Source: Centroscyllium fabricii
Lineage: Eukaryota
Assembly (NCBI GenBank): GCA_051313645.2
Contig: JBNRSN020000008.1
Span: 105,028,001-105,092,000, forward strand
DNA: 64,000 bases
Direction: 5' to 3'
The position numbers and the translations under genes are program-made. Below are positions 5,711-51,109 of this stretch, one piece after another; within the stretch, counting starts at the first letter, position 1; the number at the start of each line of letters is the position of its first letter. A model generated the notes under the pieces. The model was not told the DNA's origin. It saw only the letters and a program-made list of their open reading frames with translations, and made no database searches.

Positions 5711-6248
5711 CAGGTTGAGCACCGGTAATCCGGCACGGGCGGGACCAGGCCCGTGCCGGGAAAGTGAAAAAAACGGTAGAATGAAGTTGGTCAGCGTGCA
5801 TGCGCGCACCATTCAAAATGGCTGCGCGCATGCGCACAACATTGGAAATGGCCGCCGAACGTCCTTGCTGAGTCTCCGCCGCGGTTTGTGCCTCCTGATG
5901 ACGGCCTGCAGGCTGCTCCGGGGAACCGCGCGCTTCACCATGGCGGGTGCTCGGGACTCGCACATTCAAAACACGGCGCGAGCCGCTGCGCCCTGACGCC
6001 ACGGAAGGCCCGGCTCGTCCTGCGGCCGTTTTGAATGATCTGCGCATGCGCTCGCCGTCCGGCGGCGCATGTGCAGATCATTCAAAACATCCGGCAGCTG
6101 TTTTGAATGATCTGCGCATGCGCTCGCCGGTGCATGCGCAGATCATTCACCGGAGCCTCGATCGCGGCTGCCATTTTGCGCATGCGCAGGGCAGTTGGGG
6201 CGATTTATACCGGACCACTGAAGTTGCAGGCGTTTCGGGTAACGGATT
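5711..6248. mobile_element. Tc1/mariner(pogo/Tigger)-like MITE, one end lost, CpG-rich
   Basis: TA|CAGGTTGAGCACCGGTAATCCGGCAC terminus shared with 13374-13728 and 24251-24589. Confidence 0.7.
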
Positions 6249-7254: not shown

Positions 7255-7970
7255 GAGTCATAGAGTAATACAACACGGAAAGAGGCTCTTCGGCCCATCG
7301 TGTCCACGCCGGCCATCAAACCCGTTCTATTCTAATCCCATTTTCCAGCACTTGGTCCGTAGCCTTGTATGTTATGGCATCTCAAGTGCTCATCCAAATG
7401 CCTCTTAAATGTTGTGAGGGTTCCTGCATCTACCACCCTTCAGGCAGCGAGTTCCAGACTCCAACCACCCTCTGGGGTGAAAAAGTTCCTCCTCAAATCC
7501 CCCCTAAACCTCCCGCCCCTTACCTTGAAACTATGCCCCCTGGTTATTGACCCCTTTACTAAGGGAAAAAGTTCCTTTCTATCTACCCTATCTATGCCCC
7601 TCATAATTTTGTACACCTCAATCAGGTCCCCCCTCAACCTTCTCTGCTCCAAGGAAAACAACCCCAGCCTGTCCAGTCTTTCTTCATAGCTGAAGCGTTC
7701 CAGCCCAGGTAATGTTCTGGTGAATCTCTTCTGCACCCTCTCCAAAGCAATCACGTCCTTCCTATAGTGTGGTGACCAGAACTGCACACACTATTCCAGC
7801 TGTGGCCTTACTAGTGCTTTGTGCAGCTCCATCATAACCTCCCTGCTCTTATATTCTATGCCTTGGCTAATGAAGGCAAGTATCCCATATACCTTTTTAA
7901 CCACCTTATCTACCTGTCTTGGTGCCTTCAGGGATCTATGCACATGCACACCAAGGTCCCTCTGATCCTC
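7255..7970 (-). mobile_element. CR1 (HER1-like) LINE 3' fragment
   Basis: ORF 7440-7787 QFWSPHYRKD...LERVQKRFTR...RRLRGDLIEVYKI; CTATGACTCTAT tail on - strand. Confidence 0.88.
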
Positions 7971-8773
7971 TGTCTTTCTCTGTCCATCTTCAAGTTTTAT
8001 CTAAGATGCCCATTGCCTTAAACTCATGTACCAGCCATTCGTGAAGAATTTTGTTGAGGGTGATTTGGAAGTCTAGGTATACTATATTGGGGCTTTCAAT
8101 GTTTACTTGGCATGTCACTTCCTCAAGATTGTCTGAGGTTGGAATGGGAATGGTTATCTTCAGCATTTTTTTCTAATGATTGATTCCATTGTTTTACCAG
8201 TTGCTGATGTAAGACTAATGTTTCTTAGTTATCTGGGTTGCTTTCATCACCTTTCTTAAAATAGGTGCCATGTTGGGTTGTTTCCAATTCAGTGGGATCT
8301 TTCCCTAGTCTTTTAGGCTCCCTCCCTGATGGTAATTGTCAGTACTTGGTAGATTTCATCCGCCTTGTCCCTTTTTTAACCTTCTGATTGTATTGACACA
8401 GCTCCTAACTTAATGTCATTATGATGGCTCATGTCTACAAGGGAAATAAATGTCCTTGTCCTCAAACACTCCTATGTCATTTGGCATGAGGATTGAAAGT
8501 ATTTAAAAAGTTATTCAAAATGAATGTCTTTCACAAAATAAAAGTACAGAAATTATAACTACCCAGTCTTCCTAATACCATTTACTGAAATAAAAATTGA
8601 GGCATGTGTGGAGAGTGTTTAATTTTTTTAAACTTTTGGTACAAATGAATGGGCATAAACTCTGTTCTTGAGAATCACTGCCTTAAATGAGGAACAATCT
8701 GTATTTTTCAAATTACACTTGATGCTAATGCACTACTAAAATATGGAAGATCCTGATTGCTGGTTGGAACTGA

Positions 8774-13373: not shown

Positions 13374-13728
13374 CAGGTTGAGCACCGTTAATCCATTACC
13401 CGAAAAACCGGCAACTTTGAACATCCGGCAATAATTTCCCCGACTGCCTTGCGCATGTGCAAAATGGCCACCGCGATTGATGCTTCGGCGAATGATCTGC
13501 ACATGCGCAGATCATTCACAATGGTCTCTCCAAGCCGAACGCGGGTTGGGCCGTGACTCCCCGAACGATAAGCACACGCACAGACCACTCAAAATGGCCG
13601 CCGGTGTTTCGCGGTGGCCATTTTGAATGGTCTGCGCATGCGCTCGCCGAAGCTTCAATCGTTCGGGATTTTAACTTTCCCGGCACGGTCTTGGTCCCGC
13701 CCGTGCCGGATTAACGGTGTTCAACCTG
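13374..13728. mobile_element. Tc1/mariner-like MITE
   Basis: TIRs CAGGTTGAGCACCGTTAATCC / GGATTAACGGTGTTCAACCTG in TA-rich site. Confidence 0.8.
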
Positions 13729-22643: not shown

Positions 22644-23758
22644 GGCGTCAATTTTCCTCAAGGCGTCAATTTTCCTCAAGGTGTGGGGAATTAGTGGGTT
22701 TGCCGCGGGTCATGTTTTCTAAAGGGTCTGGGAGATCCACACAATTTTAGCTTAATTGGCCAATTATATCCCCGCATGTGGGAACCCTTGCCACTGAACT
22801 GTTTCCAGACAGAAAGCTGGCGGGGTTTCGGCGGTTTAAAGAGCAGAGGCCATTAGCCTAGTGAAACCACAGAGATTGAGTGACAGCTGCTGTTAGTTTC
22901 AATTAATTGTGAAAGAACTCTGTGACATCACAAAGCATAGTGAAACCACAGAGATTGAGTGACAGTTGTAGTTTTTTTCAATGGCTGCCTGCTCCAGCAG
23001 ACCCATTCCATTGAGAGCTAGTGAAGAGCTATCTGTCAAACCAGCTACATGGTGAGTTTCTGAAAGCTTTTTTCCCCACTGATCTTGTGCACCCTAGGGA
23101 TACAGTTAGTCCTCATACAGGCTGGAGCCCAGGGACGGCTTCTGCTGCAACTGCTTGAATGGGGCGGCACGGTGGTTAGCACTGTTGCCTCACAGCACTA
23201 GAGACCCGGGTTCAAATCCAGCCTCGGGTACTATCTGTGTGGAGTTTGCACAATCTCCCCGTGTCTGCGTGGGTTTCCTCCCACAGTCCAAAGATGTGCG
23301 GGTTAGGTTGATTGGCCAGGATAAATTGACCCTTAGTGTTAGGGGGATTTAATATGTGGGGTTATGGGGATAGGGTGGGATATGTGTCGGTGCAGACTCG
23401 ATGGGCCGAAATGGCCTCTATCTGCACTGTAGGGATTCTATGATAGCCAGCAAGCCACTAGTGTCCCCACCAGGTTTCAATGCCGTGGTTCTCACCAGGC
23501 GTGTTTAACATGGGAAAAGGCTCAAATTAGCAAGGGGCCCTTAAAATGGCATTATACATGCCAATTAAGGGTCATCAATGAGCCTAATGACCATCCCCGC
23601 CGGTGGTGGGCGGGACTGAAACGGGTCGATCGGACCCACCGGGCTGAAATTCACAAGCTGGCGGGAAACCGGTGGGAGGGGTCACGACCTCCGTTTCCAT
23701 GATTTTGCCTCCCCAGCCGCCGAAACAGCCGCCTGTCGGCTCAATGAAAATTGACCCC
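22644..23758. mobile_element. PIF/Harbinger-type non-autonomous element with nested SINE
   Basis: GGCGTCAATTTTC...GAAAATTGACCCC termini, TAA 3-bp TSD; colinear with 55437-56415. Confidence 0.8.
23161..23442 (+). mobile_element. tRNA-derived SINE (HE1-like)
   Basis: GGGGCGGCACGGTGGTTAGCACTG head, GGGTTCAAATCC B-box, GATTCTAT tail; absent from the paralogous MITE at 56101-56110. Confidence 0.88.
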
Positions 23759-26190: not shown

Positions 26191-27941
26191 CTTCCCTCGT
26201 TCATTGCATTCTGCATTAATTGCCAGTGCAAAACACAAGTAAAACCCATGTAAACTTGTTACAGCAGTGAATTCATCTTAAGGAAACCTCTAGTAAACAC
26301 TACAGGAAGACAAATCTAAACTATCTTTCAATTATGCTTTTAAATTACAACAGAGGTAGGCCCAACCCCTGCTGCAGTGTTGTAATGTAAATGTAGCTGG
26401 ATTGGTATCTCCAATCGTATGAAATGCAACCATAATTAAACAGAGATGCCTTTTGATGCAGAGTGCCATCTGGTGTTTGTAAAGGAAGTTAGTTTCAAAG
26501 AAAGGGAAGTATTTGGTCTAAAACGGCCACGTGTCACGGATTTTAAAAATCTCCAGTGGCTCCTGTAGAGTTGCTGATGATTGTTTGAGGTTTTTTTCTT
26601 TTGATCACTGTATTTTTCTTTTATTTGACAGAAACTACTGGCAATTTTGAATGCAGGGCTGTGGGTGAGGGACTGAATCTAACTCAAGGTATTGAGTCTA
26701 CAGCAGAATTGGTTGTGAGGTAGAGCAGTGTAGAAAGTAGATGGGCTGAACTGTCTGGGAGCAGCCGGTTGTGTTGCCTTTCCAAGAATAGGCCACACAG
26801 TGTATCTGCAATTGTTGAAAAGCTAGTACAGGGTAGTGACTTTAATTTTCCAGCCATGGACCTTCCCTTGTCAAGGGCAGGTTAGTATGGGCCAACAAAA
26901 AACATTTACTGCCCTGTGCAGAAGAGCTGAAATCTCAATCTGCCCACGGCCAAAAAGGTGGCATCTACAGATATTTATATTTTCCACCAATAATATGCAT
27001 ATCAAACAGTGCCGGGATTGCTTCAAGGTCAAAGGTTAAAAGTTGCCATCCTATGAGTTTTAGCATCTATTATATAAAATATAGTTTAACTTTGTAACAA
27101 TTCATGAATACTTCAATTTGCTATTATTACAATTAGAAAATATTATATTTATAGAATTATTGATGCTTGACAATTAAATCCTTCAAAGATGTTCAGGCTG
27201 ATTCCCCAAATGGTCGCTCCCAGGGAGCACTGGTCTGGAAATGAGATGGCAGCCCTTAATTTTCCATCCATTTAAATTGATGGCTGATGAACCAGGTATT
27301 ACGAGCTCATAAATTCCTGGCCAGCACTCCTCGGTGGGCGTGCTAGATTGGGGAAATCAGCTTACACATTTCAATAAACCTTTAAGTGTGGAGAGAGCAA
27401 CAGAAGAAAGCACGAGCAACATGTCAGCTGGTCGAAGATGATGTTCAGCTGGTGGCAGAATGAAAAGCCTCAGAGCTACAAATCATAGCTCGAAGTAAAC
27501 AGATAACGGTGTTGGTGGTACTTATGTGCTGGGTGTCGCACACTAATGCTCATGAGTACAGGAATCACAACTACAGAATATCAGTGCACGGACAGAAGGG
27601 CTTTTCTGAGCTGCATTCCAGTTTTCATTTGAATCCAAAGGGGAATGAGTTAAGGTTTTGATTCAAATTGTAGAAGCTATGGAGTTTGAAACATTTCAGC
27701 TTAAGTGGGTCTTTGGGGCAGCACAGGAAGTTTAAATCCCACACTTAATTTTGTCAGCTAGTGCCAACAAGTGGAAATGTTAATGGCTGGCATGTATGCA
27801 GTTTAAATATCAAAATGAATAAACAATTGGCTATACTGAAAATTCTATTTTACTGTATTTTTTCTTTGACTAGAACACTAAAACTCCAGCTTTAAAAAGC
27901 AGGTTTGCTCAGTGAAAGTAATAACTGGAAAGAATTCTTGC

Positions 27942-28105
27942 CTGTGATATTCTTGCATCATCCTGCAGTTTTTTCAGTTTCGCTTCGTTGGCATTAAGAA
28001 ATTCTTTGAGCACAACATTATGCTCATGCATGGTGTACTCCCGCTTTGTGAGCTCCATGCCTCTTTGTAGCTCTTTAACATCCAGTAAGACATTTTCAAG
28101 GGAAA
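27942..28105 (-). CDS. FMNL2: FMNL2 FH2 exon ([24 protein letters not shown]...[10 protein letters not shown]), GC donor
   Basis: CCAG acceptor; 164 nt; only a CAG|GCAAG donor gives the phase-0 join to DAFDEVV. Confidence 0.93.
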
Positions 28106-30245
28106 CTGGAGTAAAACATTAAAATCAGACTGAATCAGCCATGCAACAATGTCTCAAATGTGCTATCAAATCCTGATAAACCTATTTGCTACAAAATATG
28201 ATGCTTGGATCAAAATCATTTATGATCACTCTCCCCCAGATGATCCTTTACTATGTGATTGCAAATTAACCCTGTGTCATCTTCTATGTTTCTTCTATGT
28301 TTCTATGTTTAATACACAAAACAAGATCGAAAATAGCCTGTTCCCTGTTTGGTTCCATAATGTATTGTTCTAGGAAACTGTCATGAATTCTTTCCATGAA
28401 CTCGTCCTCCAGACTAACCTTGCCAATTTGATTTGCCCAGTCTATATGAAGATTAAAATGAATACCTTTGTTACAAGCTCCATTATTTTGTGATTAACGC
28501 TCTGTCCAATGGTATAGCTACTGTTAGGGGGCCGATAAGCTACTCTCACCGCTGTTTTCTGCCCCTTGTTATTTCTTATCTCCACCCCTAATGGTTCTCT
28601 ACTTCCTGATCTTCCAAGCCAAGATCCTTTCTCACTACTGTCCCACAGAGAGGTTAAAGAATGCGAGGAGCAATAATGCACCACTGTCACAGAGAATGTA
28701 ATTTGTGATTTTTTTTAGGGCCTTTTCAGTGCTGTGGGAGGGGTGGAACCCTAATTGCAGGATTTCAACTGGAGAGTTCAGGGACAGATGGATGCAGATC
28801 TACCAGGCATCAATATTTTTAAGAACTTTGGTGAGGAAAAGTAGGTTGCAGTTGGGGTAGTTTGCAGGGACAAAGGTTTTTTTTTGAGAAGGGACTGATA
28901 ATGGCAATCTTAAGGTTGGAGCGCAATGCTCCCTGTAAGCTGCGCTTTGTTCCGTGCGGCCCGTTTCTTTTAGTGCGTGGTCCCTTTATACTTCCACGCA
29001 TACGTGGTATTTACAATGGAAAAGCTGGTGAGTGGCCTGCGCGAGACATTTCCTATTACTGTGCGGCTGACGGTTCATTGGTGGAGAGCGGTGCTTGTTT
29101 ACATACAGGATGATCAGGTTAGTTCTTCCAGGCTCAATAGAAGTGCTTGTTGATGTTTAACATATAAATTCCAGTGTGCTGTCACTAGTGAAAAAAATCG
29201 GCGATTTGAACGCGATCTCTCCAGCTCTCGCAGCTCTCGACATCGCGTTCAAATTGCCGATTTTTTTCACTATCACCAAAATATATAAAAACCTTCACAT
29301 TTACAACCTGTAAGACCACAAACAAATATCTCCAAAGGAATTTTTTTTAAATTACCTTTAAACCTGTTTTTTTCACTTCTCAAACCTGCCTGAATTTCAA
29401 TCGACATTTTTAAACGAAAAAAAGCGTACGGACAAGTCGGACCCCCTCCCCCCCAGCGTACGGTTTGTACGCTCGGGAAAATGTTGAAAATTGTGAAGGG
29501 CCCCTAACAACAAAACAATTAGCAAAATTTCACAGAAACATTAGGCTTCTAAAATATACCATTTTAAGTGAAGTTTCACAATGAATTGCTTCTATTTTAA
29601 TGGATCAGTTAAAAATGACTAATTACAGATTGATTTATTTAACGGTTAGGCTCAGATGCCTGGATCAGGAATTATGTACATTGGGAGTGAATGGATTCAG
29701 GCTTGGATTAGTTAGTTTTGTGAAGTATTTGTAAAATATCAGTCAGTTAAAGTCAGTTTTTAAAAATTGGCTTTCACCAGAACTTCCTGGATTTATTGGA
29801 TGTGGTCCTATTCCCTCCCTAACCCTTCTTTCTCCTCTTTTAAGACGTTCCTTAAAACCACCTCTTCAACCAAACTTTTCATCACTCTTGCTAATCTCAT
29901 TCTTGGTTTGGTTTCATTTCCCTCAGACCTCTGCGAAGCACCTTGGGAGTTTTTCCACATTAAAGGCGCAATATAAATTGCAACTTGCTGCTATTGTTAA
30001 ATTAGTTTTTTTTTAAAACCCTCTCCCAATTATGCAATTAAAACCCACAAATTCTGCCTGGTCTTCATGCTGAAAATTGAGCCGTGAGATGTGTATGCAT
30101 CATACTTGTGACATTATCAGTGCAATCACATCATAAATGTGGTGCACACTCATCACGGGACTTGATTTTCAGTATCAAAGTCTTCCAAGGGAGATGTAAG
30201 AAGTCACACAACACCAGGTTATAGTCCAACAGTTTTATTTGAAAT

Positions 30246-30280
30246 CGCAAGCTTTCGGAGCGTTGCTCCTTCATCAGGTG
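30246..30280 (-). ncRNA. Minimal type I hammerhead ribozyme motif (Penelope pLTR), stem I mismatch
   Basis: CAC-CUGAUGA-A-GGAGC-AAC-GCUCC-GAAA-GC-UU-GCG. Confidence 0.6.
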
Positions 30281-31764
30281 CAAGAGAGATGCATTTAAAC
30301 ACAGCATATACAGACGGAGAACAATGTAATCTTTCCAACTGCCCTACATCACACCTCGGCAGAGAGACATTCATAGCAATCAAAGGTGTGAATGGTGTTT
30401 AAACAGATCAGTCAGTCAAGCAGGCACCACTCTAGGAACAATGAGGTGCAGTCACAAAGGGTCAAATGTTGCAGTCTGGGTCTGTGTGAAAACCCACACA
30501 GAACAATAAAAAAAAAAGATTTTTCTTGCTGGAAATCGCAGCCGGTACAGCCGCATCTGCGTGGTGAGGACAAGCCAAAGACGACTCGAGCCTGGATGAC
30601 TCTCCATCAGGTGGGGTCACATGTAGCGCGACATGAAGCCAATATCTCGGTTGAGGCCGTGCTTATGAGTGCGGAACTTGGCTATCAGCCTCAGCTTGAC
30701 GATGTTGCATTGTCGTGTGTCTCGAAGGCCGCCTTGGAGAATGCTTACCCGAAGATCGGAGGCTGAATGTCCTTGACTGCTGAAGTGTTCCTCGACTGGG
30801 AGGGAACACTTCTGCCTGGCTACAGGAGAAACTACGCCATGTTCTTCGCAGCCTTCAACATGTCATCGATGACGACAAACACCTTGCTAAGGCCATCCCC
30901 ACGCCTCGACTACTCGCCTTCAAACAGCCGCCTAACCTCAAACAGACCATCATTCACAGCAAATTACCCAGCTGTCACAAGAACAGCGACCATGACACCG
31001 CACAACCCTGCCACGGCAACCTCTGCAAAACGTGCCTGATCATCAGCACAGATACCATCATCACACGTGAGGACACCACACACCAGGTACATGGTACATA
31101 CTCATGTGACTCGACCAACGTTGTCTACCTCATACATTGCAGGAAAGGATGCCCCGGAGCATGGTACATCGGCGAGACCATGCAGACACTACGACAACGG
31201 ATGAACGGACACGGCACAACAATCGCCAGGCAGGCGTATTCCCACCCAGTTGGGGAACACTTCAGCAGTCAAGGACATTCAGCCTCCGATCTTTGGGTAA
31301 GCATTCTCCAAGGCGGCATTCGAGACGCACGACAACACAAAATCATCTAGCAGAGGCTGATAGCCAAGTTCCGCACTCATGAGCCCGACCTCAACCGAGG
31401 TATTGGCTTCATGTCGTGCTACATGTGACCCCACCTGACGTAGAGTCATCCAGACTCGAGTCGCCTTTGGCTTGTCTTCACCACGCAGATGTGGCTGTAC
31501 TGGCTGCGATTTCCAGCAAGAAAAATCTTTTTTTTAAACTGTTCTGTGTGGGTTTTCACACAGACCCAGACTGCAACATTTGACCCTTTGTGACTGCACC
31601 TCATTGTTCCTAGAGTGCTGCCTGCTTGACTGACTGATCTATTTAAACACCATTCACACCTTTGATTGCTATGAATGTCTCTCTGCTGAGGTGTGATGTA
31701 GGGTAGTTGGAAAGATTACATTGTTCTCCGTCTATATATGCTGTGTTTAAATGCATCTTTCTTA

Positions 31765-31799
31765 CACCTGATGAAGGAGCAACGCTCCGAAAGCTTGTG
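31765..31799 (+). ncRNA. Minimal type I hammerhead ribozyme motif (Penelope pLTR)
   Basis: CAC-CUGAUGA-A-GGAGC-AAC-GCUCC-GAAA-GC-UU-GUG: core boxes, 5-bp stem II, palindromic AGCU stem III, CAC/GUG stem I. Confidence 0.72.
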
Positions 31800-31967
31800 A
31801 TTTCAAATAAAACTGTTGGACTATAACCTGGTGTTGTGTGACTTCTTACATTTGTCCACCCCAGTCCAACACCGGCACCTCCACATCATTTCAAGAGAGA
31901 ACAATAGAAAACGCTGGAGAAACTCAGCCGGTCAGGCAGCATCGGTGGAGAGAGAAACAGAGTTAAC

Positions 31968-32830
31968 GGGGGGGATTTTCAGAGGGCCGTGAAGGCGGGT
32001 TTCCGGCGGGGCGCGGGGTAAAATCACAATTCCGGCAGGCGGGAAGCCACCCCGCCGGATCCCCACCCATTTGCGATTTTCCTCAGGCAGGTTTTGCCGC
32101 CCCGAATGTTTCCCACCGGCGGCGATGCAGAATGAGCTCGTTGAGGGCCCTTAATTGGATGGGTAATCATATTTTAAGGGCCCTCAGTTATGTTAGCCCT
32201 CTTCCCACCCAAAACCCGCCTGGTGGGAACCCCGCCGGTGAAAGGTGGTGGGCACCCAGTCGGCTGGGTGTCTGCCACCTTCAAGGCATGGGCACAGTAC
32301 CCACACAGCAGCTGCCACCCAAGGGTGGTTAACTTCAGAGTCCCAAAACATAGAAATCACACCTTTAAATCCCTGCTATTCATATAGAGATTGGCATGCT
32401 GCGCTGTCTGTGAGCCAAGCTGTCAATCACCCAGGGGATCAGTTTCTGTTTACATTCCATTGAAACCACAAACAAACGGTGACTCACTTCAACTGTTTGT
32501 TTTATGGTTTTAGTGTTCCCTTTCAGACTCTGACATTTCAAAGGCTGTGTCAACATGGAAACAAAGGAACCACTTGAGCACTGTCAATCAAGCTTAGTGG
32601 TTTCTTCCTACTCAGGCTATTCAGGCCTGCCAATCAACAGCCCGCCCCACTCAAACTGTGAAGGGAAAGGGCTGCGTTCCCGCCCAATAGTGTGTATTGG
32701 AAGCCCAGCAGACTGGCGGCGATTTAATTGGCCACTTGAGCCCAAATCATTTGGGCCTCCCAGGTCCTTGGGCGGGTGGGGACAGAAAGCTAACCCGACA
32801 GCTTCCCACATCTTATTAAAAATTCCCCCC
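31968..32830. mobile_element. PIF/Harbinger-type MITE
   Basis: GGGGGGATTTTC...AAAATTCCCCCC termini, 3-bp TSD AAC/ATC; removing it restores the fold-back arm. Confidence 0.8.
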
Positions 32831-33153
32831 ATCGTTTCAGGTCGATGACCTTTCTTCAGAACTGGCGCAGCCGGGAGGAGGGATAGATTTTAAAGCTTGT
32901 TGGGGCTGGGGAAAGCGGGGTGGGACTTAAAGAACAAAGGAAAGATCAGAAATTCAAGGAACAGAGGATGGCTCTGGATAGGTATGAACGGCTCTTTTCT
33001 TTTTTTTTCTTTACTCTGCCAGAGCCGTTCACACCTATCCAGAGCCATCCTGTGTTCCTTGAATTCCTGATCTTTCCTTTGTTCTTTCAGTCCCACCCCC
33101 CATTTCCCCAGCCCCAACAAGCTTTAAAATCTATCCCCCCTCCCGGTTTCTCC

Positions 33154-33190
33154 AGTTCTGAAGAAAGGTCATCGACCTGAAACATTAACT
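33154..33190 (+). ncRNA. Minimal hammerhead ribozyme motif, second family
   Basis: AGUU-CUGAAGA-A-AGGUC-AUC-GACCU-GAAA-C(A)UU-AACU; the opposite arm has G at the A position, giving an ACGU palindrome. Confidence 0.65.
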
Positions 33191-34480
33191 CTGGTTCTCT
33201 CTCCACCAATGCTGCCTGGCCTGCTGAGTTTCTCCAGCATTTTCTGTTGTTATTTCGGATTTCTGCAGTATTTTGCTATCGCGTCTTTCGAGAGAACTGT
33301 CCTAAAGACTTGAGAGGAGTTCAGATTTAAGCAGCAATAAGTGTTAAAGTTCAATTCATAGACTGGTTCCTGGTCAAAGAGGTTATCAAGTAGAAATGGG
33401 TATTTTTTCTTTTGTTAAGAGAACCTTGTGTTTGCTTTGTTCCAGGTTTCCATTGGTGATAATTCTCATCACCCTCCCCCCTCCAATTAATAATTAACTT
33501 GGACTAAAAATTTAATTTAAAAAAGCTGTTGATTTGGTCACTGTTTAATTCTACTTATTGTTGTTTATTCCCCTCCATATCATGAGGTTAAATGAAAAAA
33601 AAAAATTATTCATTCATTATGTGTTATTTTGTACACACAAAAAAACTTAGACAAAAGTACTGGAGAGAATATAAAAAAAATTAACGTGGAAAAGTTCTGT
33701 TTTAATGAGATAACTGAGTGTATAGACAGGTTACATTGTGCTTGACTTCTAGCAGAAATAGATTTGTGGCCCCACAAAGACCAGCTGTTCTTGCCCACTG
33801 TAGTATCGACCTTAAAAGCTTTTTTTTTAAATAACTAATTTGTTTTCTTGGTAAATTTCCAAATAAAAACTGATTTTCTTTATTGATTTTCCTCCAAATT
33901 TAATCTGGCATCTTTTGGGTTCAATGCTTGCCTGGTTGTTCATACTAAAAATTGAATCTGAAAGGCACCTGAAAAACCCCAGGTTTGTAAAATCAACAAT
34001 AAAACCGACTTTAATCATCCATGCTGATACAGAACTTCCTATACAGCATGCAATAAGCATGCCACTCATGTATCACACAACAATATAATTGATCTTCATT
34101 TTTTTTTTTTTTTTTAAAGGTTAGTATGTTTTGACATGTACAGGATCATCCCATTTTGGATGGAAGTTTCCACATGACTCCCCAGACAGCAAATTTCTGC
34201 CCTGGTCCTGTGATCAAAATGAAGCAACAACCAAGCACTAAACTCCTTCCCAGAGGACGGGAAGGAGGTAAAAGATAATTAGCGAAGTGCCGAGATATAG
34301 TTAACTCAGCCGGCTCTTGTGCACATCCCAGTGGTTGGTGCAACACCACTACTGGGGAAGCTCTGGGAACAGTTCACTTTTCTACCTCTTAGATACCAAA
34401 AGAGAACAAATAAAAACCTTATGCAGATTTAGCAATATTTTCTGCAGTCTGTTTCCTTTAAGAGAAAGGTCCATGGTTAC

Positions 34481-34610
34481 CTGCTGCTGCTTTCTCCACA
34501 TAGTGGAGTTCATTGTAGAAGAGGGATACATCAGGGTACTTTTCTTTGATGACATTTGCAATGTAATGTAACAAGGTTTGTTTGCGATCTGTTGACTTAG
34601 TGTCTAAAAG
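34481..34610 (-). CDS. FMNL2: FMNL2 FH2 exon ([43 protein letters not shown])
   Basis: TAG acceptor, GTAACC donor, 130 nt. Confidence 0.96.
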
Positions 34611-34742
34611 CTACCAAAGGAAAAGAATAATTAGGCTCAAGCAGTTTAATATATTGATTAATCTTGCATACAGTTAAATGTATAATGCATTTTCATTTAT
34701 AAGTTGTATATTTGCTACAAATTTATAATGTGGATCTCTTAC

Positions 34743-34823
34743 CAGGTCTAAACTCTGCAGCTTAAATCCATACACTGCTCCCCTCTTACTGCTGTTCATG
34801 TAGTTGCCAAGAGCCAAAATTAT
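34743..34823 (-). CDS. FMNL2: FMNL2 FH2 exon ([27 protein letters not shown])
   Basis: GNYMN FH2 signature; AG/GTAAG sites; 81 nt. Confidence 0.97.
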
Positions 34824-35782
34824 CTACAGAAGGTTAGAAAAATTAAATTAATAGCCAGTGACAGAGTTGGATAAATTGGAAACTTGTGATATATTGCAAT
34901 GACTTGCTGGTGATATTATTGTGAATAATTAACACTTTTGCAGTACATCTGGTGATGGGCACCATTTCATCCATTTGATATTCAATTAGTGACAAATGGG
35001 TTTTATTTCAATGTTCCATAATTTTAACAGTAAATTCAGTTACTATTCAATTTTTATTGGCCTTAACTGTCCAAATTCACAATCTTACAATACAGCAGGA
35101 TTCTTCAGCTGCTGAAACTTTCTCCTTAAATATCAGAGATAAAGCAGAGTTTTGAGTACTGCATCAGTCTAGCCTTTAAAATTCACTTCTAAGTAAATCC
35201 AAAGCAATAATTCTCTAACTCTGTGAATATTGGCATTTTTAAACAATCATGAGTAGATTTCCCTTGGCATTGCACATAGTGAGTCAGCAGATATGTTAGA
35301 AGTTTGAGAGCGATGAGGTGAGTAACAGTGAAGTAAGTAGACAGTGGCAAAATCTTTTTTAGATTAAGTCTGGAAATTTGAGCCAATCAAAAAACTGTGA
35401 CAGATTATTTGTACTATGAATACATTTAAGACTTATAGGCAAGTCTTTTAATGTATAAGTACACCATCTTCTATGATATTCATGTGTAGTTTAGATTTGG
35501 AGCACACTAGAGTTCAGCTGCTAAGGTGGAGCGATGTTAAAATTGACTGGTCCCTCTAAGGCCACTGCTTAGATACTCGTGGAAAAACGATCTAAACTAG
35601 TGATTCGCTGAGGCTAATTGTAGAGGGAAGTTTCTGTAGATTTACAGCTACTGTAAATTTTATCCTAGGGGTGGGGTGGGGTGCCGGGGGGGGGGGGGGG
35701 GGGGCTGCAGGAATATGCCAGGTTATCAAGGTCAGAAAACAAATAGCTGGAAATGACTGTCTTTTTGACATTCTGAAGCATG

Positions 35783-37419
35783 AGGCTGGATTTTACCAAC
35801 CTCGGTGGGTCCGTGGCGGTCAACGCTGCTGGCTCCAGCCTGCTGTGTAGAATCATTGGGTTTGTTAAACCGCCCAGCGCGTTTCCCGGCCAAGTGAAGG
35901 AGGCGGGTCTGATGACATCATTTGATGACACGTCATCAGCCGGATTCCTTGACGGGACCACGCGCAAATTGATTTTGACATGTGTGCTGTCAGTGTTCTA
36001 CAGCATTGAGGTGCTGCAAACACTTACAAGCACTGCACAAAGGTGCAGGGCTGCACTCAGGCTCTCCCATGACTCCCTCAAATGTAGCCCGGTTGCACAG
36101 TGCACAGGAGGACACAAGCAGGGTTGTCGTCAGGAGGACCAGACTGCAGTGACGCAGTAGATCACAAAACGTTACTGCAAAGCCACACTCAACCTCATCC
36201 TGCTGTGCCTCTCATCACATCCCCATCACTCTGCCTTCCCTACCCTACTCCTGCACATCTTTACTCACACCAACTTACCTTGCACCTCCACCCATCCCTC
36301 TCTATCTACATTATCACATTCCCATCTCACTAGCCACCCCTCACACTCACCCTCATCCTAGTCCAATCACACCAACTAACAGCACACAAGGATTGACACT
36401 TGTGTGTTTTAGCCAATGTTCATGTGAAGTTTCTGTTAATGTGCTGTCAAACATATTTATTTTCAACACGTTGCGTTCTTGGACAGATTTGTGTGCACCT
36501 TTTGAAATGGCTTAGTGAGTTGCAGTGAATGGTGAGACATAAGGGTACCCCCCGCAATGCTGATGAGTGTGAAAGGAATGACTTGGGCATTGTAGGGATG
36601 CTTTATGGTGTTGGTGTGGGGTGGTGCCAACCTGACGCATCATGTGGCAGTCAGAGTGTACAGAGTCAAGTGAAGTAAATCTGGCCATGGTGAGGCCATT
36701 CCTGGCGTCCCGGGCAGCAATGTGATCGGGTGCTGATACCCTTTGTCCTGTGCAGCATCAGTTGATTGCGGAGAAGGTTGGTGTTGTTGTTGGTGCTGCT
36801 GATGTGCCTGGTGATGCTGGTGTTCGTCTGATCGTGGTGGGATTCTTAGGACCAAGGTGAGATAGTTTCAAGGGCACCAATGCTGATGAAATAGATGGCA
36901 GATGAAGTAGAGATGACAGAAGCAATCTGTCAATGGTGGAAGAGGTAATGAGGTCAGACTGGATGGAGACTTGTGTAAAGACTTGCAAGATTCTGAATCT
37001 GTAGTGGAAATGCAGTTTAGAGAACTTAGGGGCAAAGGGAACATTTCTCAATCAGCTGGGAGCTTTGACTTGACATCTGAAGCTGTCAACTCATCAGCTG
37101 AAACAATGGCAAGTGACCTCCTGCCTCAGCTTCACAGACGGGATCTAAGCACAGTGGGAAACCAGTGGGCGACCTGTCAAAAATCAAAAAGCTGGGAAAA
37201 AAGCATTATTAAGTGGCTGTAAACAAGCCACCAATGATTTCAAGTGCCTCCCCCGCCACAACATGTTGAATCTGCTCAGCGCTGACAGACTTGACACTTG
37301 GGAAAGGCGCGTGGTGGTGGGTTGACAGCGGGTTCCCAATCCGCTGTGGGGAAAAAAAACCATTTTCTCACCCGACTTGCCACGGATAGCACCCGCTGGC
37401 TCCCCGGAAAATTTTGCCC
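35783..37419. mobile_element. PIF/Harbinger-type deletion derivative
   Basis: GGCTGGATTTT...AAAATTTTGCCC imperfect TIRs, GC-rich subterminal regions like other copies. Confidence 0.55.
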
Positions 37420-37804
37420 ATGATGTCTGATATACGATGGAGGCACACATATTTTCCGATCACAGGTCTCCCGCAGGCAGAGGCCTGCGATCTGGGAAAA
37501 TCTGCGCCCTTACCTGAGGGCTCCCGGGATGCACACGCTTCCGCTCCTGGGCCTCTCCAAACTTGAAGTGCGCAGGGCCCACGTATCCCAGGGGTGCAGG
37601 TAGTTCGCAGCGTTCCTGGATTTCACGTGGGCCATGGGGAGCCAATCACAGAAGGGAATCTCCCTTCATACATTTGACAGGAAGACCTATCCAGGCGTAA
37701 CAATTGTAAGGGTTTTCTGTGGGCGGAGTGTCTCCAAAAAGCAGAACTATCTGCCCGGAGAGGCCGTTCTCCAGGGCAGCCAGAGGCTCTGTCAAGACCA
37801 TTCT

Positions 37805-37945
37805 GATGTGGAGGTGCCGGTGTTGGACTGGGGTGGACAAGTGTAAGAAGTCACACAACACCAGGTTATAGTCCAACAGTTTTATTTGAAATCACAAGCT
37901 TTCAGAGCGTTGCCCCTTCATCAGGTGTAAGAGAGATGCATTTGG
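37805..37945 (-). mobile_element. Solo Penelope pLTR fragment with hammerhead motif (37893-37927)
   Basis: Reverse complement of 31750-31888; CAC-CUGAUGA-A-GGGGC-AAC-GCUCU-GAAA-GCUU-GUG. Confidence 0.8.
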
Positions 37946-38259
37946 AAAGTTTGAAAGGCCACTAAATGCAGGACTCTATGTATTAAAAGTCTTGCATATG
38001 GCATGTATTTCCTGCAAGTGTCACACTTCTTGTAACATTTCACCCTCAAGCACACTTTTACAATAACACCCTTATTGTTAATAAACAACATAACTTCCAA
38101 CTCACCATTAACAACACCATGGGAGTTCTGTTAATAAAAATATTTTATTTTATATATGAATCTTTAAGTTTTGAAAGAAACCCTATTTGCAAGAATGTCA
38201 GTTCTATTTGTATTCAGGGCATATTTATACTGTCAGACATTAAGATAATTGCTACTTAC

Positions 38260-38328
38260 CTCCAGTATTTTCTTCAGTTTTTGAGATGATTTTATTGATA
38301 CGGATGCTGCTATTATAGCATGGAGTTG
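38260..38328 (-). CDS. FMNL2: FMNL2 FH2 exon ([23 protein letters not shown])
   Basis: TTTAG acceptor, GTAAGT donor, 69 nt. Confidence 0.96.
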
Positions 38329-39001
38329 CTAAATCAAAAACAATGAATGTTAATGATTAGCCGAAGTTAAGAAATAACTGCACTCTTATTAATTGCTTTT
38401 TTGGACTACTATAAGAATATCACGATGTGGATAAATTGTAATTGCTGATTGGTAGTTTTAATTTTGCATTTCCTATGTACAAGCCATATGAATCCAAAAA
38501 GATATACATTTTACATACACATCTAGCAAGCTCTACTTTGAAAAGTTCATTTTGCTGCATAGCTGTTTGAGGCAGAGTAACTGAGGCATGCAGATCAAAA
38601 AGTCTCCAATGCAATCCTAATCTGTGCCAATTTAGCTCCTCAGCGCCACGGTGGAGGTACGATCCAGCACCCCGAGATTAGGGGGGGGGGGGGAAAGAGC
38701 ACTCAGGGCTCCCACTCCTGCTTGCCATCCAAAGACACCCACTGGTAGTTACTAATGACAGGATTGGTCTCATTTGTGATGCCGTCCACGGTTGAATAGC
38801 TTGCACATTGTCAAGGATGTTCACTGCAGTGATGTATCACAGGTTGACCTGTGCCTGAGGAATCATACTCCAGTAAGATGCTTTCAGCAGTAATGGACAG
38901 CAGAGATAACTGGCAGGGAAGGAGCGAAGAAAAATTCACTTCGCTCCTCAATTTAAAGATTATTTAATGATCATTCTGGATTTCAAGATAGTTTAAGACT
39001 T

Positions 39002-39784
39002 GGGGGTAAATTTTCCCTCGGGTGTGGGGAATTGGCGGGCTTCTGGTGGGTCAGGTTTCCCACACGAATGCTAAAGGGCCTGGGAGCCCCACGCAATTTT
39101 GGCTCAATTGGCCAATTAATTCCCCGCGTGTGGGAATCCTTGCCACTTGACTATTTTCAGTATGAAAGTCGGCGGGGTGCCGGCTGCTTAAAGCCCAGAG
39201 CCCCATTACAAAGCGAAGTAAACTGCAGCCCTTTGATTGACGGGTCCAGGTCAGTTATAATGGGAACTGCTGCAGCACAACTGTTTCATTGACAGCTAGT
39301 GGAGAGCTATCTGTCAAACATTAAAAATGAGCTGCAAAGTGAGTTTTTGAAAGCCTTTTTCCTCACTGATATTGTACACCCTGGGGATACAGTTAGCCCT
39401 CCTGCAGGCTGCTGCCCAGGGACGACTTCTGCTACAGCTGTTTGCATGTCATCCTTTGACTTGCAGCTGTTTGTCAGCAAGCCAATTGTGGCCCCGCCAG
39501 GTTTCACTGACGGGGTTTCAAGCTAGCGGGTTATGGGTGGGGAACACCGGAAAATAGCAAGGGGACCTTAAAATAGCATTATACATGTCAATTAAGGGTC
39601 CTTAAGGAGCCGAACACCCATTCCCGCCGGTCACGGGCGGGAAAGATTTGGGGCGGCAGACATGGCGGTGGGAAATTGCAAAGTGGCGGGAACCTGGCGG
39701 GGTGGGTTGGGACCCCCCTGGTTTTGCTATTTTGGGCCCTCCCCGCCGGAAAACCCAGCTCATGGCCCAAGGAAAATTGACCCC
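39002..39784. mobile_element. PIF/Harbinger-type MITE
   Basis: GGGGTAAATTTTCC...GGAAAATTGACCCC termini; homologous to 22644-23758. Confidence 0.78.
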
Positions 39785-48000: not shown

Positions 48001-48835
48001 GGGGGGAATTTTTCCGGAAGGGCGGGAACCTGGCGGGGATTGGTCGGGGCGGCTTCCGGTTCCGCCCGCCCAACCAGCTGGGAAGGCCACACAATTTTAG
48101 GCTAATGAGGTCGTTAAATCCCCGTCGGCGGGAGCGGCAGGTAATTAGGTGAATCGGGTCGGGCTGCAGCGGAGCTGCGAGCACTTTGAGTGAGAGTTCC
48201 AGCACTGGTTGTTGTCAGTTCCCATGGCAACACTCCACTGTGACATCACAGTGGAGTGGAGCCAATGGGAAAGGCCAAGTGCTGGTGACTGACAGGTGGG
48301 CGGTCGGGCTCCGAATCCCTCACAGCTCGCAGCAGCTGAGAGGCCATCGTGAGAACTGAAATTGCTCAGTTTCTGGTCTCAGCTGATATTGAAGGCAGAA
48401 CGGAGGTACTTACTCCTCTAAGGTGCTGGAGGCATGCCAAGCGTTTGGCAGCATGTCCTTCAGACCTTAAAGGAGAAAGTAATAAATTCAGGAACTCACA
48501 CAACACCAGGTTATAGTGCAAAAGTTATAAGCAGCGCTGTGCTCCCACTGGGTTTCACCCAGCGGGGTTTAAGGTGACGGGGTATGGGCAGAAAACAGCA
48601 CAAAATGGCTGAGGGCCCTTAAAATGGCATTAAAAATGGCAATTAAGGGCCCTTAACGAGGTGACAACCCATCCCCGCCGGTCGGCGGTGGGAAGTTTCG
48701 GGGCGGGGAATCTGGGGGCGGGAAAATGAGAAAGCGGCGGGGATCCGGCGGGGAGGGGTGGGACCCGCCGGTTCCGCTATTTTGCCGGCCCGGCCGCCGA
48801 AAACCCTGCCTCACGGGGACATGAAAATTCCCCCC
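48001..48835. mobile_element. PIF/Harbinger-type MITE
   Basis: GGGGGGAATTTT...AAAATTCCCCCC TIRs with ATA TSD. Confidence 0.82.
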
Positions 48836-50413
48836 ATAGTGTTCCATTATGCCAAGATAAACTGTTGTGTTTTATTTTTGTTTAGTAATATGCACTGAAA
48901 GAACCACAGTCAACAATACATATCACTGCTTGAAAGACACAGTGTGATGTACAGCACCAACAGAGCATAAAGAAACCTACAGAACAGCTTGATTGGTCCC
49001 TCTTGTATGGAAGCAGATAGGGTAGATAAAGAAAGATGAGTTAGCAGAAGTGAAGTAATTAAGTAGTGTGCAAGGAATAGCAGAAATCATTTATCATTGG
49101 CAAGCACTCTCACTGGTGAAAATAGCATAGGAAATTTATTGCACTACTTTGCCACAGATGTAACTTATAATCTAAATGGATCACAGTAACTTTGCAACTT
49201 TCACATATTTGTCATGGCATTTATTTATTGATCTTATTAATATTATTGTTATCTTAAGCCAATTATAATAGAGCTAGGTCATGTGATTGATACAACCGCA
49301 CTGATCCATTGTATAGGTCATTGATTTTATACCTGATATATCATTAACTGGTCACAATGAGGCAGCCATGTTACCCAATTACAACTCAATGAGAGGTTAA
49401 AAGGAGGTTTATCTTTTAAAATCCAAAAACATCGTAGGATGTTATTTTAAAATTGCTTGATGAGGCTTTGTTATGATCATTTAATTTCTGCCACCATTTT
49501 GTCTCCTTTTTCTGTCATTATTTCTTCATTCCCTTTTCTCTTTCAATGCACCCTTGAGACTTATAACCAAAACTGCATATTGTAATCATTCTCTATTCAT
49601 TGCACTGTAACATAATTTCTGACACAACTATTTTTAACAGTTGGAATGATTTACTATTAAATGATAAACTTTAGTCTTTGAAACATGAATACCTGTATTA
49701 TTTTCAGCATTCATTGTGATTCTGAGTCTTTATACTAAATAGGAGACTTCCAACTTGAATAAATGCTGCTAAAGCAGATTCTTCTGAGAAGTTTCCTCTC
49801 TCCCCACCCACATTATTTTTCCTTCTCCTTTCCTCCATCAATTCATTTTTTTTTAAAGTTTCTTTCTGGATTACCAATCATTTCCAGAATCAGAGGGGTG
49901 AATGTCACTCTTGAACCTCCTGCATTTGTGTTTTCTTTCTACATCTTCACCCCCACTCCACCCGCTGTCACAGGCAGCCCGAGATCAGGATTGTGATATG
50001 GGGAGAATGGAAAATACAAAACCCAACGGCCAACCACCTTTTCATAACTTTCCTCTTCCTGTATGTAGTCACCTTATTCATCTGTCTAACTTATAGGGGC
50101 CGATATTAAACACACCACATGGGTGGGAAACGGAAGGAAAAACAACAATAATGAGGTGTCCTGCTGCTAAATTTGGCAGGACCGTCATGTCCCCGGGATT
50201 CCACCACCGCCCCTCCGCAAGTCACAAATGAAATAACAAACACACGCTACAGAGGGCACTAGTTTCTATAATTTACTGTCACAATGTTGTCTGGGTCCAG
50301 TATTCAAACTCCTGATGTTGCCAAGTATTCCTTTGATGTCAACAATTAAGTGTCTCATCACCTGTACACTAGGTATCTGTGAAACACATTGTGATCGTAT
50401 ACCATGATGTTAC

Positions 50414-50602
50414 CTGCTAAGCCAGGGTTAAAAATGAGAGTCGGGGCTGTCCCGGGCAATGGAGGAGCTGCTGGCGGTGGCGGTGGTGGTGGCGGTGGCG
50501 GAGGAGCAGGCAGAGCTTCTGTGGTTGCAGTTGGAGGCGGCGGCGGTGGTGGCGGAGGGGGAAGTGGGTGTGATGATGGGACCGCCACTGGCCCATTTGG
50601 TA
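50414..50602 (-). CDS. FMNL2: FMNL2 FH1 poly-proline exon
   Basis: CAG acceptor, GTAAC donor, 189 nt phase 1-1; two poly-Pro runs, ends APPLPGTAPTLIFNPGLA. Confidence 0.95.
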
Positions 50603-51109
50603 CTGCCAAAAATACAAAAACAAAAGATGTGTTTAGCTTTCAGAAAAGTCATAAATGCTATTATGTCAGTCCTGCAAACATTTTCTTTTTTCACGGGATA
50701 ACGGTTAAACAATTATCGGATTTCAGACAAAGCTACCTACATAGGTAATCGTAAAATACACATTAAGCACACTGCTATGAGTTTATTCTAAAACTCCCGA
50801 CTTACATCAGAAAACTTTAACTTAATACTGGGGGGAAAATCTTACTAGCGGTGAGTGAGGGTCTAGATTGAGTACTATTATTTTCATTGTGTTCATGTTG
50901 TCCTTCCAGTCATTTTTACTGCTACTACTATCCTTCTCCAGGGATATTCATAGACTTAAACTATTACAATAAAAAGTTAAGTTTATTTTCTCGCTAAAAT
51001 AGCAACATGGTTACTGCCATGCCAGCCAGGGTCACAGAATCATAACACAATTAATCCCCAGTGACAAATTCTGTGCCTCAGTTAGAAGCCAATCTGAGTA
51101 ATGCCTTAC

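Follow-up and report, generated by a model that had tools for sequence, protein, structure and literature searches.

Does the hairpin near the middle of this stretch of Centroscyllium fabricii DNA belong to a family that moves as a hairpin, or is it what a known kind of retroelement leaves behind? The initial annotation favoured the former and described, within the 64,000-nucleotide stretch that we analysed (the window), a non-autonomous fold-back retroelement carrying a hammerhead ribozyme in each arm, possibly an undescribed retrozyme-like family. We assign a probability of about 0.84 to another reading, namely that this element, here called B, is a single, heavily 5′-truncated Penelope-like element (PLE) insertion in which two short 3′ ends lie head to head.

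Architecture of element B and its neighbour

Element B is made up of the following parts, numbered on the window:

31900..31967, − strand: outer part of the left arm, an inverted PLE 3′ end without tail; its start is uncertain by up to 5 nt, the repeat finder reaching 31895
31968..32830, no strand assigned: insert of 863 bp, non-coding, bounded by terminal inverted repeats (TIRs) of 12 bp; it splits the − strand hammerhead in stem III
32834..32995, − strand: inner part of the left arm; the − strand hammerhead has its core and stem II here (32863-32834)
32996..33020, + strand: loop of 25 nt, 92% pyrimidine; the adjoining right arm is 71% pyrimidine
33021..33251, + strand: right arm, corresponding to the PLE 3′ end in direct orientation (pseudo-LTR region)
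33252..33282, + strand: one-sided 3′ tail, 31 nt long, or 34 nt with an end at 33285, not present in the left arm

Removing the insert in memory leaves arms of 230 and 231 nt that align over 231 columns with 214 matches, 16 mismatches and one gap, and nine of the 16 mismatches are transitions. The hairpin with arms of about 230 bp and the 25-nt pyrimidine loop that had been described are real. The wording "near-perfect" is a bit generous: the arms do pair, but at an identity of 92.6%. Local alignment places 32834–32995 against 33021–33183 in the inner arm (153 matches, nine mismatches, one gap) and 31900–31966 against 33185–33251 in the outer arm (61/67 identical). The segment 32834–33256 folds at −302 kcal/mol (z = −31), a value equalled by 0/100 shuffles. 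The element was also said to lack coding capacity. In agreement with this, no Pfam family matched any of the four longest frames in or across it below E 0.26. Two features had been overlooked: the tail, which runs 31–34 nt beyond the inverted repeat on the right side, and a likely target duplication of 11–14 bp flanking B. In the neighbouring element A, the loop is the 5′ excess of its direct copy. By analogy, the loop of B probably marks the truncation point, its 25 nt being the surplus 5′ end of the direct copy left without a pairing partner. Besides the two arms, blastn found no further copies of the B arm in the window (next best match, E 0.16).

The insert, whose TIRs match at 11/12 positions, is bordered by a 3-bp duplication agreeing at 2/3 (31965–31967/32831–32833). 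Three relatives in the window have 3-bp duplications and end regions that are 62–72% identical; across the insert and these relatives the TIRs match at 11–12/12 in 4/4, and the duplication is 3/3 in two and 2/3 in two. Elements of this non-coding family, 782–1573 bp long with G-rich 12-bp terminal repeats, are located at 48001–48835, 39003–39784 and 53442–55014, and ends are also found at 23758, 45218 and 56415. The insert is presumably PIF/Harbinger-like, given its short G-rich TIRs and 3-bp A/T-rich duplication, which are hallmarks of that group. It likely arrived after the hairpin had formed.

To the left of B lies element A (30194–31888), which shows the same layout with arms of 627 nt and a coding loop of 404 nt:

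30194..30820, − strand: inverted 5′ copy, 589/627 identical to 31225–31851, with a hammerhead core at 30277
30826..31428, + strand: 5′-truncated reading frame with a GIY-YIG endonuclease region at its end and an internal stop at 31348–31350
31764..31800, + strand: minimal hammerhead, stem III AGCU
31852..31888, + strand: one-sided tail, 37 nt, AC-rich, missing from the inverted copy; its end is set by the solo copy at 37804–37943

The frame of A matches Pfam GIY-YIG at E 0.013, below the cut-off. Among 120 candidates, 102 were homologues of this frame, some of which bear PF00078 or PF01541; the best named homologues, from the shark genera Heptranchias, Mustelus, Chiloscyllium and Scyliorhinus, are 67–83% identical, which by itself marks the host as probably a shark. 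At the inversion junction of A (30821–30828), 5–8 nt fit neither copy.

A solo 140-nt end of family A (37804–37943, − strand) carries hammerhead and tail without an inverted arm and with no obvious target duplication. Family A thus occurs both as a fold-back and as a solo end, which indicates that truncation varies within one family. Moreover, the coding neighbour A displays the layout at other arm and loop lengths, so that a fold-back needs no special family. The assignment of B to a second family, apart from A, was borne out, as its best local alignment to the 3′ end of A scores only 23. Arm divergence (16/230 in B vs 38/627 in A; p 0.64) gives no order of insertion. The distances from the cut site to the arm end and to the tail end measure 55 and 92 nt in A, and 65 and 96–99 nt in B.

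Hammerhead motifs in the two arms

One of the two motifs of B is found in the right arm:

33154..33190, + strand: minimal type I hammerhead with a 4-bp stem I, a 5-bp stem II and stem III ACAU, predicted to cut after 33186

Some 300 nt separated this motif from the other, which is on the opposite strand, until the insert entered. Both arms had been credited with one and the same hammerhead sequence with a palindromic ACGU stem III. There is one motif per strand, but the quoted sequence does not occur in both, and both are damaged. In the + strand arm, a G16.2 to A exchange yields ACAU and the palindrome is lost. In the − strand arm, the quoted motif is present once the insert is removed; now it is split in stem III, where the insert interrupts it at its cleavage triplet. 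The + strand motif further has an extra A after A9 and a stem II closed by A10.1–U11.1.

The link to Penelope that the initial annotation had drawn holds, since the motif fits the minimal PLE hammerhead described in PMC4209133. According to that paper, this form has an extra base after A9, a palindromic 15.2–16.2 and no loop 3; B shares with it the type I CUGANGA core, short stems I and II and the lack of a stem III loop. The ACGU/GUU form, which by our own count occupies 15/56 rows of Fig. S3 in PMC4209133, is that of the − strand copy of B at the empty site. Unlike the usual G–C, the A10.1–U11.1 pair of B is seen in few of these rows, for example Latimeria 2. The rows contain no cartilaginous fish, and the + strand copy of B differs from them by its ACAU. 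A 17-nt piece of the B motif gave no literature match.

A strict scan for minimal hammerheads returned three matches in the window (31768, 33158 and 37924) vs none in 12 Markov-1 nulls; allowing one mismatch added nothing in the window and one match in the nulls. The strict scan misses the inverted copy of A, whose stem I has decayed, and the split copy of B, both of which are visible in the alignment. The Rfam hammerhead models gave no match at the gathering threshold over the whole window. With E up to 10 over 30000–33500, there were 15 matches, all below gathering and none of them a hammerhead. Rfam miRNA and snoRNA matches on B were rejected as generic hairpin matches below the gathering score. 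The inner hairpin at 32937–33080 matches a plant miRNA model at E 8e-7 and 45 bits (gathering 85) and is likely to prompt false miRNA calls. A bacterial promoter scan was set aside as not informative for vertebrate DNA. Short palindromes of 54–127 nt also occur at 29186–29272, 6028–6149, 13571–13644, 48219–48271 and 59334–59417; the scans revealed no hammerhead in them, and several lie within other repeats.

Forcing the hammerhead fold inside the hairpin costs 55–60 kcal/mol, compared with 0.7–3.7 kcal/mol in an isolated arm, and the motif in B is predicted to be buried in the duplex. For stem III of B, 4/4 pairs could form with no other partner than an intact B copy, against 2/4 with family A motifs, and the locus contains no motif on the same strand able to pair with it. 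The strand of the solo copy of family A is that of the inverted hammerhead of A (30277) and of the host pre-mRNA, and the two have matching AGCU stems III. For minimal PLE hammerheads, PMC4209133 reports that monomers are inactive and same-strand dimers weak. On our reading, the pseudo-LTR carries the hammerhead along as a passenger. The B copy is predicted to be inert today: it encodes no protein, its motif is buried, and a double hammerhead would lack its second member on the same strand.

Origin of the fold-back layout

Element B combines features of EN+ PLEs: a minimal pseudo-LTR hammerhead, an inverted 5′-truncated copy, a one-sided tail and a likely target duplication. An inverted 5′-truncated copy at the 5′ end together with a tail of 30–40 bp is given as typical of PLEs in PMC8557442. 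PMC3846280 describes inverted pLTRs with 9–10-bp duplications and a 31-bp tail, and PMC4209133 links pairs of hammerheads, 100–700 bp apart on opposite strands, to truncated PLEs. These published layouts, together with element A, are the ground on which we read B as a truncated PLE. The resemblance to 5′-truncated EN+ PLEs (Penelope/Poseidon, Neptune) as presented in PMC8557442 and PMC3846280 extends from the head-to-head 3′ ends and one-sided tail to the short target duplication, the pseudo-LTR hammerhead and the insertion beside another PLE. Unlike these elements, B is truncated past the coding sequence, so that a clade is not assignable.

Several points count against the truncated-PLE reading. 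The target copies differ more (2/11 to 4/14) than the arms (6–7%); the tail of B is U-rich and its stem II has A–U instead of the usual G–C; and the continuation of the sense strand through the loop rests on inference. A parent element of B with reverse transcriptase (RT) and GIY-YIG domains was not found among non-animal collections and translated frames. The translated arm frames, compared in search of spurious shark translations or the N-terminus of a parent, yielded 0/9 and 0/1 candidates, which is a weak test for non-coding DNA, and two matches to these frames were unrelated repeat proteins and were rejected as chance. As expected, an exact 24-mer of B had no occurrence in prokaryotic genome contigs, and the right arm of B had no match among plasmids and phages. 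For the element A homologue P0001, 0/50 pattern matches in prokaryotic contigs were confirmed. The literature covered, which excludes most subscription papers and the repeat databases, yielded no description of family B.

How could two 3′ ends come to lie head to head? In our model, the RT-endonuclease of the parent would nick both target strands 11–14 nt apart. From each nick, cDNA would be primed on the RNA of the element, beginning downstream of the hammerhead at either of two start sites, of which one would yield the tail and the other would not. Both cDNAs would end early, at about 290 and 230 nt, and be joined at their truncated ends with 25 nt left unpaired. The left copy would later have been interrupted by the DNA transposon-like insert. 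In vitro, the anole Poseidon protein is reported to cut and extend both target strands and to initiate copies at two internal positions, one at either border of the tail, with ribozyme cleavage being dispensable (PMC11167929). In this anole element, PAc, the cut lies at ORF +26 and one start site at +111–118, which gives a spacing of 85–92 nt vs 96–99 nt in B; both are tailed. Unlike PAc, as described in PMC11167929, B has no start codon at stem II and its tail is U-rich, not AC-rich. Two-ended priming is what we infer ourselves; the experiments of the anole paper do not test inversion.

Alternatively, and this we hold as a tentative possibility, the inversion could have arisen from one cDNA that folded back or primed itself, or B could derive from a short, SINE-like PLE derivative. 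The element would then still be a truncated PLE, and the difference lies in the mechanism. In PMC3846280, PLE inversions of the head-to-head type are explained by self-priming on an antisense template, and B holds no coding sequence, so the length of the template is not fixed and a SINE-like source is conceivable. However, the left arm is without tail and 31–34 nt short, which a second start site fits better, and the arms are joined by a non-palindromic spacer of 25 nt rather than by the palindrome described in PMC3846280. Decidedly unlikely is a family whose copies move as fixed hairpin units with a Penelope enzyme, B being one of them. The absence of a coding remnant in B and of a longer relative in the window would suit such a family, non-autonomous PLE derivatives are known to exist (PMC8557442; bioRxiv 10.64898/2026.07.22.740005), and pLTRs alone are reported to mobilise cargo in trans (PMC3846280). 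Yet the coding neighbour A has the same layout with other lengths, the known derivatives are head-to-tail, and the tail occurs on one side only, as an integration product would have it. A full transcript is moreover predicted to form a 230-bp duplex that would bury the ribozyme and the copy-start region. If true, such a family would add a new kind of parasite of PLEs, but we see no sign of it in the window.

A non-LTR retrozyme giving rise to a small circular RNA is very improbable as well. Like the animal non-LTR retrozymes of PMC7229834 and bioRxiv 10.64898/2026.07.22.740005, B is small, non-coding and PLE-derived with a type I hammerhead motif, and retrozymes have been reported in one chondrichthyan genome. 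Whereas those retrozymes are head-to-tail with at least two intact ribozymes on the same strand, B is head-to-head and has none intact. The head-to-tail repeats of 150–450 bp were not found, a same-strand stem III partner is absent from the locus (2/4 pairs with family A), and the motif is minimal rather than of the canonical type with loop contacts. Over 27500–38500, no tandem array was detected beyond two short low-score repeats. The proposal of an undescribed retrozyme-like fold-back family is therefore not supported, given the opposite strands, the lack of a tandem array and a layout that is that of published truncated PLEs. An LTR retrozyme was rejected too: no long direct repeat was found, and a type I motif with an 11–14-bp duplication stands against type III with 4 bp. 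For B itself, a MITE or foldback DNA transposon was discarded because the right end runs 31–34 nt past the inverted repeat. We likewise give very little credence to a local inverted duplication or an assembly artefact formed without retrotransposition. Fold-back artefacts do occur in assemblies, but the arms of B differ at 16 sites and a gap, one arm received a later insert, and a tail and a target duplication are present.

Target copies, host intron and implications

Reading B as a truncated PLE insertion directs attention to its flanks and those of A, where three similar target copies are located:

30180..30193, + strand: target copy T1, left of A
31889..31899, + strand: target copy T2, the entire spacer from the A tail to the B left arm
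33283..33296, + strand: target copy T3, right of B

Identities amount to 9/11 for T1–T2, 9/11 for T2–T3 and 10/14 for T1–T3, and all mismatches are transitions. The target sequence is 10/12 palindromic. Anchored nulls gave 2.8e-4 for T1–T2 and, with 21 offsets allowed, 4.6e-3 for the duplication flanking B (9/11), which is of moderate strength; both jointly were attained in 0/200000. Unanchored local alignments of the targets are much weaker (p 0.015–0.073). Judged from these alignments, A and B, members of different families, appear to have a target site in common, of which there are three copies. T1 and T2 share two states against T3, and T1 and T3 share three extra 5′ bases. This pattern suggests that B inserted before A, and that A then entered the left target copy of B, with a cut at the border of B to within about 3 nt.

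A common sequence preference or chance explains this single case of a shared target. A bold reading, which we regard as doubtful, is that Penelope fold-back insertions serve as landing pads across families. The unrelated endonuclease of A would have cut the base of the fresh 230-bp hairpin of B, and such a structure-guided cut, as at a cruciform, would have re-duplicated the target copy of B. It would yield a quasi-palindromic target three times over and a duplication of A that ends about 3 nt from the left border of B. Existing PLEs, or sites next to them, are described as targets of further PLE insertions (PMC6765202), while PMC3846280, for the PLE types it studied, reports no cross-mobilisation. 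Our literature search found nothing on the Penelope GIY-YIG endonuclease and cruciforms. According to PMC8557442, the formation of inverted ends and the choice of targets by PLEs are still open questions.

Both elements reside in an intron of a formin gene:

28106..34480, − strand: host intron of the formin FH2 gene, 6375 nt, with GT and AG ends, holding A and B

The exons flanking this intron were located with FH2 motifs, and Pfam FH2 was found on two other exons (E 2.4e-17 and 5e-4). The formin exons extend across 25102–51467 on the − strand, with a polyproline stretch at 50358–50639, and the gene is presumably FMNL-like. The window is otherwise vertebrate-type DNA rich in LINE fragments, among them reverse-transcriptase fragments at 61655–63049, 41–1954, 7256–7978 and 57034–57859, which include one stop-free frame of 464 aa. 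The only likely present effect of B is a possible one, a predicted 163-bp duplex in the intron of the host pre-mRNA.

Element B, read as a truncated PLE, is a small, clear example of a Penelope insertion that mimics a hairpin RNA gene or a MITE. Together with A, it provides two shark-like variants of the minimal hammerhead, from a group absent from the 56 rows published in PMC4209133. Should the shared target prove general, it would offer a simple genome-wide test of site choice, and landing pads, if true, would be a rule for the site choice and clustering of PLEs.
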